Of a stretch of DNA of 64,000 nucleotides, positions 209 to 11,391 are shown in pieces. Source of the DNA: Chloroflexota bacterium. GTDB lineage: Bacteria; Chloroflexota; Limnocylindria; Limnocylindrales; CSP1-4. The stretch lies in NCBI GenBank assembly GCA_042408535.1, contig JBHORA010000039.1, positions 3,419 to 67,418 on the forward strand, given 5' to 3'. A model generated the notes under the pieces. The model did no database searches, was not told where the DNA came from, and saw only the letters and a list, made by a program, of their open reading frames with translations. Each line of letters starts with the position of its first letter. Position 1 is the first letter of the stretch. Made by a program: the position numbers and the translations under genes.

Positions 209-557
209 ATGTCAAGCATACGGGAGTTGAGGCCTGAGGGGCAAGGGATGCACCTGCTTCACCGTCGGCCGGGAGCGTCGCTCGGTACAGCAGCAGGGTG
301 GATACCGGAACACGCCGGTCGAAGATCGGGCCCCGGCTGCTTCGCTCGGCCCGGCGCGTGCCAGATGGGTTCGGCCAGATCGAACGGGGAAGGCGACCAG
401 GGGCTGGTCGGGGCGAGAGGGCTAGGGCCTCCTTAACTCAGCAATCTCTCCGCTTCGTGATGATCAACCGCACGCCGAGGGAGTCCGTCCCAGCAGCAGC
501 GGCGCGAAGCGGGTGAAGGCGTAGCCGCTGGGGCGCCGGCCCCCGTCGCGCTGCGGT

Positions 558-1442
558 ATGCTGCGGTTCATGTCGCAATTTGGGATGTCTGACTTCCTCG
601 ACGACGAGTCCACTCCTGTTGCGATCGCCAACGCCACGTCTGCGGGGGTCGCCGGCTGGACCGGGCAGTTCTCGCGGGGGCAGGGGTTCTGGGACTTCGA
701 GCTCATCGCAACGGATGATCCCGAGATCCGCCTCCACGGCGTCGTTACGGACCGGAGCCAGCTCGCGATCGTGTGCATCCACCGGCGGGATGGAGGCCGC
801 GTCGTCGCCGTTGAGCCTCCAGACCCGCCCGAGAACGTGGAGGACGAGGGCGGGTACGCGGCATGGATGGCCGGCGTCCTCGCGCACGCCGTCGACGCGC
901 CCGACGACGCCCGACCGGTCGCGGCGCCGCCGCCCATGTCGCTGCTGCCCGGCGGTGACCACTGGGACGCCTGGTTCGTCATCCAGCCAACCCTCCACGA
1001 ATTTTACCCGAAGGCGGACATGTCGCGGTCCTTTCTCGCGGAGGGCGCGGCGGCGCTCGCCGCGCGGGATCCCGACAGTCCGATCGAGTTCTGGTTCGAT
1101 GTCCCGTATCCCGCAGAGCTCGGGGTGGACCCTGATGAAGCATCGTGCCCTTGGCTGTTCGAGGCGTGGCCGAACGGGGCCGAAGCCCGGGTCCGCCTGT
1201 CGTTCTGGGAAGGGCTCATGGGACCGGATGAGGTCTACGGCTGGGCAGCGTGGACTGACGACGTCGTGTGGTTCGCGGCCTACGATGCGGCGACCGGCGG
1301 GTGCACGATCGCGAAAGTCGCGAAGCCAGTCGAGCTCCGAGAACGTGGCTCGGACGATCCAGCATGGTGGCTCGCCCTGGCGCGGCTGCTCGTGCTGCTC
1401 GATGCCCAGGTCGTGGGAGACCCTCTCTACCTGGGCTATTAG
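558..1442 (+). CDS. hypothetical acidic, Trp-rich protein
   Basis: 294-aa ORF with normal amino-acid composition (MLRFMSQFGMSDFLDDEST...), unlike the overlapping Arg-rich frames. No family recognised. Confidence 0.6.
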   Translation: MLRFMSQFGMSDFLDDESTPVAIANATSAGVAGWTGQFSRGQGFWDFELIATDDPEIRLHGVVTDRSQLAIVCIHRRDGGRVVAVEPPDPPENVEDEGGYAAWMAGVLAHAVDAPDDARPVAAPPPMSLLPGGDHWDAWFVIQPTLHEFYPKADMSRSFLAEGAAALAARDPDSPIEFWFDVPYPAELGVDPDEASCPWLFEAWPNGAEARVRLSFWEGLMGPDEVYGWAAWTDDVVWFAAYDAATGGCTIAKVAKPVELRERGSDDPAWWLALARLLVLLDAQVVGDPLYLGY

Positions 1443-1754
1443 GGCCACGCTCTTCGGGTGAGATAAGTCGCAGGTAGGCCAGCGCTCCTACATTCGCAGC
1501 AGCCCCCGCTCCGCACGTTCGCTGCGTCGTGACCCCGCGCCCGCTCTCGTTACGAGATTGGGCGAACGGCCGCTGCCAACAGGTCAGGGGCGACGGAGTC
1601 GGGCCGAGGCTCGGCGGCGTTCGAGGGTCCAACGTGTGCGATCCGGAAACCACCGCCGCCGGTCCAGCCCGTGAGGCGCGTTATCCCGCCCGGGTCGGCT
1701 CCTTGGACCACGGCGCGGAGTCGCGGCACAAGGTATTGATCGCGCTCTTGGACC

Positions 1755-2642
1755 TTGAACAGCGCCGGGACCGAGGTAAGGTGCGACCTCCGATGGACCG
1801 CGACCGATCCGCATGAATCGCTGCCTGCCGACCTCCCTCGACGGCGTGGCGGGCCTGCGGGCGGCCCGCTGGTTCCGCGAGAGCACGGCCGGCCAGAGAA
1901 CAAAGCCTACGGGTCGATCGTCGGCAACTCGGCCGCGCCGTACCTGAATGACCTCATCACCAGGTTCGGCCTCGCCGCCCGCTACGAGGCGGTCGCCCAT
2001 CCCTCGGAGCCGAACTACCTCGCCCTCTTCTCCGGTTCCACCCAGGGGGTGACCGATGACGGCATCCACGACCTGGCGGGGCGCAACCTCGCCGACCAGC
2101 TCGAGGAGCATGGCCGCACCTGGCGCGTCTTCGCCGAGAACGTCCCCCTCGGCTGCTTCACCGGCAGCGTCGCTTCGGGCGGTCCGGACGGGCCTGGCAC
2201 GTACGCCCGCAAGCACGAACCGGCGATCAGTTTCACGGACATCGCCCGCAACCCGGTCCGCTGTCGGAACATCACCGACTTCTCCCACTTCGACCCGGCC
2301 GCGGCGGACTTCGAGCTCATCGTCCCGAACCTCTGCCACGACATGCACGACTGCTCGGTGGCCGTGGGCGACGCCTTCCTGCGCTCGTTCGTGCCCCGCA
2401 TCACCGAGAGCGGCGCCTTCGCCGACGGCGTCCTCTTCATCACCTGGGACGAGGGGACAGGCGGTCCGGGCGGCGGCCACGTGGCGACGATCGTCGTCAG
2501 TCGGAGGGTCAGGCCCAGCACCGTGTCTCGGGTCCCGCACGACCACTACTCGCTCCTGCGGACGATCGAGGACGCCTTCGGGATCGGCTGCCTCGGTCAT
2601 GCCTGCTCGGCGAACGATCTCGGTGAGGTCTTCGCCCGCTAG
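1755..2642 (+). CDS. phosphoesterase-family protein (acid phosphatase / phospholipase C type), start uncertain and possibly 5'-truncated
   Basis: Motifs ENKAYGSIVG, HPSEPNYLALFSGSTQG, KHEP, PNLCHDMHD and ITWDEG are typical of this family. The usual signal peptide and hydrophobic strand before EN are missing. Confidence 0.75.
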   Translation: MNSAGTEVRCDLRWTATDPHESLPADLPRRRGGPAGGPLVPREHGRPENKAYGSIVGNSAAPYLNDLITRFGLAARYEAVAHPSEPNYLALFSGSTQGVTDDGIHDLAGRNLADQLEEHGRTWRVFAENVPLGCFTGSVASGGPDGPGTYARKHEPAISFTDIARNPVRCRNITDFSHFDPAAADFELIVPNLCHDMHDCSVAVGDAFLRSFVPRITESGAFADGVLFITWDEGTGGPGGGHVATIVVSRRVRPSTVSRVPHDHYSLLRTIEDAFGIGCLGHACSANDLGEVFAR

Positions 2643-2710
2643 CCGGCCCGCCGGGTGGCTGCCCTGGCGGGATCGAGCAGCGTGTCCGCCTGGATGGCTG
2701 GTGGTGCGTT

Positions 2711-10372: not shown

Positions 10373-10919
10373 ATAGCGCCTCCCGGAGGGCCTTCAGCGC
10401 CAGTCGGAGATGCGTCTTGACGGTGTTCTCGCCGACGCCCATCGCCACGGCCGTCTCCCCCACCGAGAGCCCGGCCAAGTGATGGAGAACGACGGCGACC
10501 CGTTCTTGGCGAGGCAGGCGAGCAATGGCCACTTTCAAGGCGACGCGAGCATCGGACGGCGGATCGGCGACCTCGACGACGGCCTGGTCCAGAGAGAGCA
10601 CGCTCCGCATGCGACGGCGCCATCGCGAGGCCTCGCGAGCCTCGATCGCGAACAACCACGCGCGGAGTTTCGTGGGATCCCGCAGGGATCGCAGATGGCG
10701 CAACCCGAGCTCCAGGGTCGCCTGCGCCACGTCCCGCGCATCAGCCTCGTTCCGGGTCAGGAATCTCGCCGTGGCAAGGAGCTCTGGCGCCAAATCGGCC
10801 ACCTGAGCGTCGAGGCTGGCCCCGGTCGCAGACCCATAGCGTTGCAGTTCTGGCTTGGCCAACGCATCAAGCCGGGCGAGGGGCTGCGCGGTGAACCATC
10901 GTTCGCTGACAGCGCTCAC
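10356..10919 (-). CDS. ECF RNA polymerase sigma factor
   Basis: Region 2 (EADARDVAQATLELGLRH...) and region 4 (LAGLSVGETAVAMGVGENTVKTHLRLALKAL). Confidence 0.85.
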   Translation of the reverse strand: MSAVSERWFTAQPLARLDALAKPELQRYGSATGASLDAQVADLAPELLATARFLTRNEADARDVAQATLELGLRHLRSLRDPTKLRAWLFAIEAREASRWRRRMRSVLSLDQAVVEVADPPSDARVALKVAIARLPRQERVAVVLHHLAGLSVGETAVAMGVGENTVKTHLRLALKALREALCDRNT

Positions 10920-10984
10920 GGCGGGCGGCTTCTCCGAGCAGCTGGGACGTGCTCTCTGCGCTCCCTACTGGTTCAGAGGAGATC

Positions 10985-11290
10985 ATAGGTCGTTTCGGGT
11001 GAAGCCACACCCGGACATCAGCCCGGTGCGCCCGCATTCGCGCGTGCCTGACCTCGGCACGTGCGTTCGTGCAATTCACCTTGTCGAAGTTGGTCAGGTT
11101 CGTCGGACCGTACCAGTAGCTGGGGCGCTCATCGATGAATTCGGCGCTGTAGCCGTCGTAGTAGGTGTTGCCGAGATTGATGATCTTCGATTGTGAGGTC
11201 CCGGTCGTATTGTCGGCAACGTAGCGGCGGTCGCGTCTCGAATTCGCACAAACGTACGAAGCGACGCGGAAGCGCCGCTGGCATGAGCGT
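10985..11290 (-). pseudogene. fragment resembling a peptidase A4/G1 (glutamic endopeptidase) C-terminus
   Basis: Own translation: [56 protein letters not shown] (compare the SAEWI.E....La.Fg.v.F signature). No start codon, low GC, and the frame decays afterwards. Confidence 0.35.
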
Positions 11291-11314
11291 GAGAATGGGA
11301 CGTTTAGGTCAGTC

Positions 11315-11391
11315 TGGTCGGGGCGAGAGGATTTGAACCTCCGACCTCAGCGTCCCGAACGCTGCGCGCTACCAAACTGCGCCACGCCCCG
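11315..11391 (-). tRNA. tRNA-Pro (anticodon CGG), CCA encoded
   Basis: rc = CGGGGCG TG GCGC AGTTTGGTA GCGC G CAGCG TTCGGGA CGCTG AGGTC GGAGG TTCAAAT CCTCT CGCCCCG ACCA. This is a full cloverleaf of 77 nt. Confidence 0.9.

Follow-up and report, generated by a model that had tools for sequence, protein, structure and literature searches.

Vestiges of a large serine recombinase in a repeat-bounded island at the tRNA-Pro(CGG) gene of a soil Chloroflexota genome

We analysed a stretch of 64,000 nucleotides, referred to below as the window, from contig JBHORA010000039.1 of a metagenome-assembled genome (MAG) of a soil Chloroflexota bacterium (GCA_042408535.1; 2.9 Mb, 222 contigs, 71.8% G+C), and focused on a 10.9-kb island that lies beside a tRNA-Pro(CGG) gene. 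The window genome (G000) was compared with three species of the same genus (G001, G002, and G003) and with further genomes of the family. An initial annotation of this DNA had described a 17-bp direct repeat of the tRNA 3' end at the two edges of the island and had found neither a tyrosine nor a serine recombinase inside it. The features that mark the edges of the island, together with traces of a large serine recombinase (LSR) gene and of a small helix-turn-helix (HTH) gene, are the following.

2-403, minus strand: left flank outside the island, consisting of VapB1 (2-208, MazE type by Pfam) and a 196-bp spacer (B'); 89% identical to the DNA from VapB to tRNA-Pro in G002
404-420, plus strand: distal copy of the 17-bp core, exact CTGGTCGGGGCGAGAGG, the attR-type junction
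406-516, plus strand: vestigial 3' tail of an LSR gene, A-type, GRGERARASLTQQSLRFVMINRTPRESVPAAAARSG followed by a stop, from translation and tblastn with the G263 recombinase
512-560, plus strand: dead start of a small LuxR/GerE-like HTH gene, with ATG changed to GTG and a stop after 3 codons
1813-1896, plus strand: first 28 codons of an LSR gene, MNRCLPTSLDGVAGLRAARWFRESTAGQ, with the start codon and the catalytic-serine motif, cut off at 1896
4994-5010, plus strand: third, degenerate core, matching at 15 of 17 positions
11314-11330, plus strand: proximal copy of the 17-bp core, exact CTGGTCGGGGCGAGAGG, made up of the tRNA 3' end and one further nucleotide
11315-11391, minus strand: intact tRNA-Pro(CGG) gene, called by ARAGORN and by Rfam (RF00005, 65 bits), whose 3' end is the proximal, attL-type junction

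The direct repeat is exact at both positions, as the initial annotation had claimed. Its proximal copy spans one base past the CCA, the CCA itself, the discriminator, the 3' acceptor strand, and part of the T stem. When up to two mismatches were allowed, the window contained three matches to the 17-mer, compared with a mean of 0.15 in 100 composition-preserving shuffles, none of which gave three. The exact 17-mer is present twice in the whole assembly, once at each of the two window junctions, and is thus not dispersed through the genome. Like an Islander-type island, the insert has an intact tRNA gene at one end and, at the other, a displaced piece of the tRNA 3' end as a direct repeat. The weaker similarity reported beyond the repeat (CCTCC, CTCAGC) is also real, and it exists because the DNA that follows the distal core is the tail of a recombinase gene, which at the DNA level repeats, in degenerate form, the part of tRNA-Pro that extends from its anticodon stem to its 3' end.

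The initial annotation had proposed looking for an empty tRNA-Pro site in a related genome, and G002 has such a site. On contig C5 of G002 the order is a membrane protein gene (92% identity), 2.2 kb of the species' own DNA, a VapBC pair 89% identical to VapBC1 of the window, the spacer, tRNA-Pro, and the right flank (84%). In the window, VapC1 and the gene for the large membrane protein lie further left on the contig, beyond VapB1. In a three-way alignment, G002 tracks the left junction through the 17-mer and then switches to the tRNA junction, with the breakpoint exactly at the core. The tRNA-Pro(CGG) sequence is 100% identical among the window, G001, G002, and G003. These alignments favour the reading that the DNA at 421-11313 was inserted between the repeats, into the 3' end of tRNA-Pro(CGG). 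G002 itself may not be a virgin site. In G003, the membrane protein gene and the tRNA are separated by 2.2 kb of other DNA, and in G001 by about 7.4 kb that contains no second core. G003 (locus L016, contig C172) also carries about 2.4 kb inserted 5' of tRNA-Pro, before the right-flank gene, which is absent from G000, G001, and G002; thus, both sides of tRNA-Pro are variable within the genus.

The statement that the island lacks a tyrosine or serine recombinase stands in the sense that no intact one is present. A six-frame search with PF00589, read through stop codons, gave no match on the contig at E <= 0.1, the matches in the genome being two Xer-like genes on other contigs. Likewise, tblastn with three tyrosine recombinases of relatives found no match on the contig at E <= 10. 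The tblastn check for integrase remnants that had been suggested earlier was therefore negative for tyrosine integrases but positive for a serine recombinase, with vestiges at 406-516 and 1813-1896. At the distal junction, the core reads directly into the tail in a single frame (GRGER-ASLTQQSLRFVMINRTPRE...ARSA and a stop). The start of the HTH gene that follows has been changed from ATGAGAGACGGG to GTGAAGGCGTAG, and homology is gone by about position 560; this dead start was read from the sequence directly and from alignment A5, and intact homologues are 80-86 aa long. The N-terminal vestige was found by tblastn with full-length LSRs of relatives, which matched 1810-1896 at 56-62% identity, with an E value of 6e-6 when 12 kb were searched and of 1e-7 when 600 nt were searched. 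This match ends at 1896, the exact base at which homology to the phosphoesterase gene of G001 starts, and we therefore conclude that the LSR gene was truncated and joined to a 5'-truncated phosphoesterase gene. The region 421-1896, which consists of the tail, the dead HTH gene, an open reading frame (ORF) at 558-1442, and the LSR start, has the layout of a small element that has lost its recombinase body and its proximal core.

Traces beside the tRNA are fainter. The last 12-30 nt before the tRNA core (about 11284-11313) weakly resemble the 3' ends of beta-type LSR genes (the types are introduced below), and a home-made LSR profile hidden Markov model, run on six-frame pieces of 1-12000, produced weak matches only, the best of them at 11184-11333 (E 0.04). 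Read on the plus strand, the proximal core encodes GRGERI and a stop, the same C-terminus that is found in the tRNA-abutting recombinases of relatives. Inside the island, the degenerate core at 4994-5010 is followed by the remnant of a D-type tail (5011 to about 5080). In alignment A4 this remnant resembles the arms of G009:C147, G009:C122, and G175:C33a, and the tblastn match of a D-type junction tail to it is weak (E 0.08). This site is probably a junction between two tandem units, with moderate support from its sequence. Other candidates for recombinase-derived DNA were rejected. An LSR C-terminal remnant at 4590-4993, hinted at by tblastn (E 0.5-1.6), was not supported by the profile search; the left flank at 247-403, suggested by a tblastn extension, has about 20% identity and a pre-core sequence unlike any LSR C-terminus; and the ORF at 558-1442, considered as an unrecognised recombinase, has no Pfam or NCBIfam match and no homologue in 17 related genomes, arm-bearing ones included.

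The 100 nt that follow the distal core on its right, here called the arm, were found again, 76-91% identical, in 21 of the family's 301 genomes, spread over 15 of 49 genera, and in every case beside unrelated genes. Among the 16 distinct copies of the tail in these relatives, all 15 that are complete are open in frame, with lengths of 108, 111, or 114 nt. The TGA of the tail overlaps the ATG of an 80-86 aa LuxR/GerE-like HTH gene (an ATGA overlap), at least 144 relatives of which were confirmed in public genomes. Two other interpretations of the arm were dropped. As a structured RNA or pseudo-tRNA gene it is contradicted by ARAGORN, which calls none of the extra copies, by the absence of an Rfam match, and by a pattern that is that of a coding tail. 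As the non-coding P arm of the attP of a tyrosine-integrase element it does not fit the frame, the ATGA overlap, and the LSR upstream. In four genomes (G229, G137, G143, and G163; loci L036, L038, L023, and L040), the tail and HTH module follows a deviating core, for example CCCTCTTGCACCTCCGAC, which encodes RRCKR instead of GRGER. These copies may be variants for another target, or diverged forms that have not recombined.

In several relatives the recombinase itself is still present. The frame of the tail extends upstream of the core into an LSR in G263:C9 (PF07508), G009:C81, and L058. Facing the tRNA, uninterrupted LSR frames of 462-570 aa run into the tRNA 3' end and stop with GRGERI in G019, L061, and G009:C182, where the stop is a TGA formed by the antisense of the tRNA T loop; G019 and L061 have genuine tRNA-Pro(CGG) genes, and G009:C182 is a tRNA junction at a contig end. 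The same layout of an LSR against the tRNA is found in G008, G009:C138, and L060, with frames that are broken or shorter. The two full-length LSRs that were scanned with Pfam gave PF00239 (Resolvase) scores of 46 and 39 bits, and one of them also matched PF07508 (Recombinase); PF07508 scores in these LSRs are 20-23 bits, near the cutoff of 21.1 bits. When started at the first methionine, the LSRs of L061 and G009:C182 are 485 and 515 aa long, and RESTAGQ and C-x2-C motifs are visible. Their N-terminal resolvase-type domain, which bears the serine motif, their recombinase domain, their cysteine motif, and a size within the usual 450-600 aa mark the enzymes of the relatives as large serine recombinases. 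The Pfam zinc-ribbon model gave no score on these LSRs, and searches of PDB sequences and NCBIfam with an LSR gave no matches.

Both ends of an element are found on one contig in G008 (L121/L122, C7:467550-506668). One end, with the tRNA and LSR, is at 467.5 kb; the other, 39.1 kb away at 506.65 kb, has the tail and core. Between them lie genes for a large terminase, a DUF3854/AAA_25 primase-helicase-like protein adjacent to the LSR, a DUF6308 protein, and an IS481 insertion sequence, as well as a type III-like restriction-modification system that is interrupted by an insertion sequence. The LSR gene seems to be split into ORFs of 406 and 121 aa, the larger of which has both domains. The element of G008 resembles a prophage. 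Far shorter elements, of 3-6 kb and containing just the HTH gene, a few other genes, and the LSR, are suggested by other loci.

Junctions in the relatives combine pre-core types (alpha, beta, and gamma LSR C-termini) and tail types A-D in every combination, and cores occur in arrays. In G074, cores lie 10 kb and 4.2 kb on from the tRNA, and arrays are also present in G263:C2 and G298:C3. On G175:C33 (L032), four cores fall within 4.6 kb at spacings of 2355, 1728, and 527 bp. G009 has eight exact 17-mers, mostly at or near contig ends (contigs C32, C81, C87, C122, C130, C147, and C182). Tandem arrays and mixed junction types such as these are produced by repeated integration at one site. The very short units in G175 and G009 look like heavily deleted remnants or small cassettes.

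A sister family repeats the arrangement at another tRNA. Its tail, ARPTGVGRAISTYTIPIEGRDEWLAAARRLA and a stop, precedes the same HTH gene, and its 16-nt core, CCTGTCGGGCGCGCCA, is held in common with the 3' end of tRNA-Arg(CCG). In many MAGs this tRNA gene lies about 4.87 kb downstream of the HTH gene (for example at 11874-11949) and is preceded by an LSR remnant. The tRNA-Arg(CCG) family is an independent replicate of the architecture. Loci L046, L048, L051, L054, L056, L074, and L111 have the HTH gene at 7001 or 4759 with tRNA-Arg(CCG) downstream, and in several MAGs a tRNA-Arg islet of the same size, about 4.9 kb, retains just 39 aa of a recombinase next to the tRNA.

Taken together, we consider it likely that the island in the window is the decayed remnant of one or more integrative elements of an LSR family that inserted site-specifically at tRNA-Pro(CGG). 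The integration into a tRNA end that the initial annotation had read from the repeats is thereby upheld, but the element would be of the large-serine-recombinase type and not a classical tyrosine-integrase island. The repeats, the empty G002 site, the homology of the tail, the recombinase vestiges, and the LSR genes against tRNA-Pro in relatives are direct observations; the LSR as catalyst, a crossover inside the 16-17 bp held in common, and how many integrations and deletions occurred, and in what sequence, are inferred. In the free element, attP would lie inside the last 35 or so codons of the LSR gene, reading ...GRGER-ASLTQQSLRF... to its stop codon, which would overlap the start of the small HTH gene. 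Recombination would take place within the 16-17 bp common to the tRNA and attP, and would regenerate the tRNA. The body of the LSR gene would then be set against the tRNA on the opposite strand, the gene now ending ...GRGERI at a stop inside the T loop, and the tail with the HTH gene would be moved to the far end of the insert, beside the direct repeat of the tRNA end. Repeated integration would build up tandem arrays. In the window, later deletion or rearrangement would have removed the LSR genes and left the tail, the dead HTH start, and the 28 N-terminal codons.

The remainder of the island consists of cargo. Genes were called by Pfam scans of ORFs, and NCBIfam was used in addition for ORFs without a family. 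The interior contains the following features.

558-1442, plus strand: ORF of 294 aa, cargo with no Pfam or NCBIfam match
1755-2642, plus strand: phosphoesterase ORF, Pfam PF04185, matching only profile positions 105-355 (the C-terminal two thirds)
1896-2642, plus strand: 5'-truncated phosphoesterase part, 92% identical to the full-length G001 gene adjoining tRNA-Pro
2711-3796, minus strand: polysaccharide deacetylase, PF01522, 98.8 bits
5084-5733, minus strand: toxin-antitoxin pair of VapC2 (PIN) and VapB2 (MazE/AbrB type), by Pfam
6122-6469, plus strand: YgaP-like membrane protein, by Pfam
6482-7288, plus strand: extracytoplasmic function (ECF) sigma factor with regions 2 and 4, whose ORF continues into a zf-HC2 anti-sigma domain, by Pfam
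7289-10355, strand not assigned: weak-coding zone with frame changes, from the frame plot; third-position G+C signal weak
9362-10372, minus strand: ORF that overlaps the sigma gene at its end and may encode an anti-sigma factor; no family match
10356-10919, minus strand: second ECF sigma factor, by Pfam (Sigma70_r2, r4_2, ECF)
10870-11290, minus strand: peptidase A4-like gene fragment adjoining the tRNA 3' end, PF01828, partial, below cutoff, E 0.0013

Most of the cargo listed by the initial annotation was recovered by Pfam, namely VapBC, two ECF sigma systems, the deacetylase, and the phosphoesterase, but the reported VanZ fragment had no Pfam match among the ORFs in 7147-10393. One of the VapBC pairs (VapB1 at 2-208) is outside the island and is not interior cargo. 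The zone 7289-10355 gave no Pfam or NCBIfam match among the ORFs scanned, and a PIN remnant within 7.3-10.4 kb was not recovered by Pfam on the ORFs tried. G+C content falls to 0.65-0.68 between 7.3 and 10.4 kb, compared with 0.718 for the genome, and the peptidase A4-like fragment also sits in DNA of lower G+C (0.65). The island is indeed eroded, as had been claimed: it has truncated genes, a weak coding zone, and a recombinase reduced to vestiges. No LSR of the tRNA-Pro family was found elsewhere in the assembly, which is 92% complete, and the island is therefore regarded as fixed and eroding.

The interior has more than one affinity within the genus. In G001, the stretch between the membrane protein gene and the tRNA holds a phosphoesterase gene of full length, with 92% identity to window 1896-2646, as well as a VapBC pair that is 88% identical to VapBC2 and 81% to VapBC1; phosphoesterase and VapBC have the same order and orientation in the window as they have beside tRNA-Pro in G001. 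Between G000 and G001, flank identity is 74-86%, which is below the 92% and 88% of these inner segments. VapBC1, outside the island, is most similar to the copy in G002 (89%), and VapBC2, inside it, to the copy in G001 (88%, against a genome-level 74-86%). The two VapBC pairs of the window are 5.5 kb apart and 83% identical to each other (window 1-220 and 5526-5745; L001 2977-3640). The block with the sigma factors, 5773-11313, is absent from G001, G002, and G003. From these comparisons, the tRNA-Pro site appears as a hot spot and the island interior as a mosaic. The internal junction at 4994-5010 and the two segments colinear with G001 indicate that the 10.9 kb is probably composite, and two or three elements are more probable behind it than one.

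Several observations weigh against an LSR element as the source of the island. No recombinase body remains beside the tRNA, where only the 12-30 nt resemblance is left, and the internal junction at 4994 consists of a 15/17 match with modest similarity to an arm. The interior is a mosaic in which phosphoesterase and VapBC2 are colinear with a G001 flank that lacks the distal repeat, and part of the DNA between the repeats may be older flank DNA, or DNA captured elsewhere, rather than the cargo of a single element. For a serine integrase, 16-17 bp of common core is long. One relative (G185) has a tyrosine recombinase near the arm. Substitutions among the tails are distributed over codon positions as 109/46/114, without concentration at the third position; the constraint on the tail is therefore possibly in part at the level of a DNA site, and the conservation of the tail may owe as much to such a role as to coding. 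Lastly, the assembly is a MAG of 222 contigs with 92% completeness and 5.8% contamination.

A different history would make the island a chimera of element and ancestral flank, with two 17-mers that do not stem from a single insertion of the DNA between them. Illegitimate or homologous recombination would have linked a small element (tail, HTH gene, the 294-aa ORF, and LSR) and the flank attached to it (VapBC1-B'-core) to older DNA beside the tRNA that resembled the flank in G001 (phosphoesterase ... VapBC2 ... tRNA). The breakpoint at 1896 fits this well, because the LSR vestige stops exactly where G001-like DNA begins, and so do the colinearity of phosphoesterase and VapBC2 with the G001 flank and the split affinities of the DNA, with the left flank most like G002 (89-92%) and the inner segments most like G001 (88-92%). 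However, LSRs of the family lie directly against the tRNA, so about 9.4 kb must still have replaced the LSR body, and the junction at 4994 and the sigma-factor block at 5773-11313 are more simply explained as further insertions. We regard a chimera as unlikely but worth keeping in view, and it is a variant history rather than a different mechanism.

It is more doubtful that the island is a cis-mobilizable element (CIME-like), excisable by an LSR supplied in trans, with G002 representing a lineage in which excision took place. The island has att sites at both ends and neither an integrase nor transfer genes, which is how a CIME is formally defined, and both cores are exact at 17 of 17 positions despite the eroded interior. 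Integrase-less units bounded by cores are also common in relatives, at 10 and 4.2 kb in G074 and at 2.4, 1.7, and 0.5 kb in G175, and the same has been proposed for Dehalococcoides islands without integration modules (PMC3146451). Against this, the assembly offers no LSR of the family that could act in trans, and almost no element sequence is left at the proximal junction, whose attL half-site is therefore perhaps incomplete. Serine integrases normally depend on a directionality factor for excision (attL x attR), and no such factor was identified in the island.

We find it improbable that the island derives from a classical tyrosine-integrase element (P4/lambda-like or pSAM2-like) whose integrase was deleted and whose arm served attP as an arm-type binding region. 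Tyrosine-integrase islands are by far the commonest kind linked to tRNA genes (Islander, PMC4383910), and tyrosine recombinases do lie near an arm or core in two relatives (297 aa at 630 bp in G185; 400 aa at 135 nt in G143). Yet the profile and tblastn searches for tyrosine recombinases described above were negative on the contig, and 8 of 10 arm-bearing genomes that were checked have no tyrosine recombinase on the same contig or within 100 kb. In several genomes it is LSR genes that are continuous and in frame with the core and abut a real tRNA, and the vestige within the window is that of an LSR. Finally, a chance repeat, or a local partial duplication of the tRNA without a mobile element, is hardly credible: short G+C-rich matches are commoner in a very GC-rich genome such as this one, but none of the 100 shuffles reproduced the three matches, the 17-mer is confined genome-wide to the two junctions, the G002 breakpoint is exact, and the adjoining arm is a widespread recombinase-gene tail.

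The LSR family that we propose as the source of the island has its closest known counterpart in the ssrA islands of Dehalococcoides, a likeness that we draw from architecture. Those islands lie in tandem downstream of ssrA, with about 20 bp of the ssrA 3' end directly repeated at their boundaries, and encode the serine recombinase DsiB (540 aa), whose gene always overlaps attL with its 3' end and there extends into the adjacent island or RNA gene (McMurdie et al. 2011, BMC Genomics 12:287; PMC3146451). Islands without the integration module have been discussed as possibly cis-mobilizable or fixed (PMC3146451). Both systems belong to Chloroflexota and have a repeat of an RNA-gene 3' end, tandem islands, and an LSR against attL, although the LSR and the tandem islands are found here in relatives of the window genome. 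They differ in target, which is ssrA in Dehalococcoides and tRNA-Pro(CGG) here, with tRNA-Arg(CCG) for the sister family, and in the class of the host, which here is Limnocylindria. They also differ in that a conserved tail beyond the core is coupled to an HTH gene here, whereas the ends of DsiB were called divergent and unlikely to be functional (PMC3146451), and in that the window island has no recombinase gene. A small DsiA-like recombinase or a six-gene integration module was not seen among the ORFs scanned, those of the G008 element included.

Other described systems share single aspects. Islander-type islands (PMC4383910) resemble the window island in the intact tRNA, the displaced 3' repeat, absence from a relative, and accessory cargo; however, they are defined by tyrosine integrases, whereas here the family is that of a serine recombinase and the copy has no integrase gene. 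CIMEs in streptococci, which accrete with integrative and conjugative or integrative and mobilizable elements (PMC5704250), are likewise integrase-less att-flanked DNA in tandem with related elements at one site. They differ in that here there is no cognate integrase in the genome and there are no conjugation or mobilization genes, so that mobilization in trans is hypothetical. The "suicidal" archaeal integrases of the SSV type (PMC7253208; PMC8371274) also have attP inside the integrase ORF and a tRNA target, and their gene is changed upon integration and remnants accumulate. In contrast to the present family, they are tyrosine recombinases that are split into two large halves, whereas here a serine recombinase would swap its last 30 or so codons and be left whole in every other respect.

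A more speculative possibility, which we think less probable than not by a good way, is that the tail and the translationally coupled HTH gene form a switch by which the LSR responds to its integration state. As long as the element is free, and likewise at tandem junctions, the LSR would carry a conserved extra C-terminus of about 30 aa and would be translated together with the HTH protein. Integration would trim the LSR to ...GRGERI, antisense to the tRNA, and the HTH gene at the far end would need transcription from outside. Integration-dependent control is known from mycobacteriophages that have attP inside the repressor gene. If it exists, the switch would be a serine-recombinase counterpart of SSV-type integration-dependent control, and integrase-less units at tRNA-Pro and tRNA-Arg could act as trans-mobilizable cassettes in an integron-like array.

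The island in the window is itself fairly ordinary, being the remnant of a known kind of element, and the tail and HTH arrangement, as a possible switch, is perhaps the feature of the family that deserves follow-up. About 11 kb beside tRNA-Pro, with a toxin-antitoxin pair, two ECF sigma systems, and enzymes of the cell envelope, would be horizontally acquired, decaying DNA, and annotation and comparative work should treat it as such. The Limnocylindria are abundant, uncultured Chloroflexota of soil and freshwater. They would host a widespread family of elements that have attP in the 3' end of the LSR gene and target tRNA-Pro(CGG) or tRNA-Arg(CCG), and the architecture of the Dehalococcoides ssrA islands would thereby be extended to true tRNA genes and to another class. 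LSRs with such short, defined tRNA targets could serve as integration tools. As a separate observation, tyrosine recombinases of 297-330 aa that are 48% identical to each other form a family (L021, G009:C180, 622-2608, and L022, G185:C9, 11007-11900); they stand beside VapBC and tRNA-Arg(CCG) in one genome, and beside an A-type tail and HTH gene in the other.

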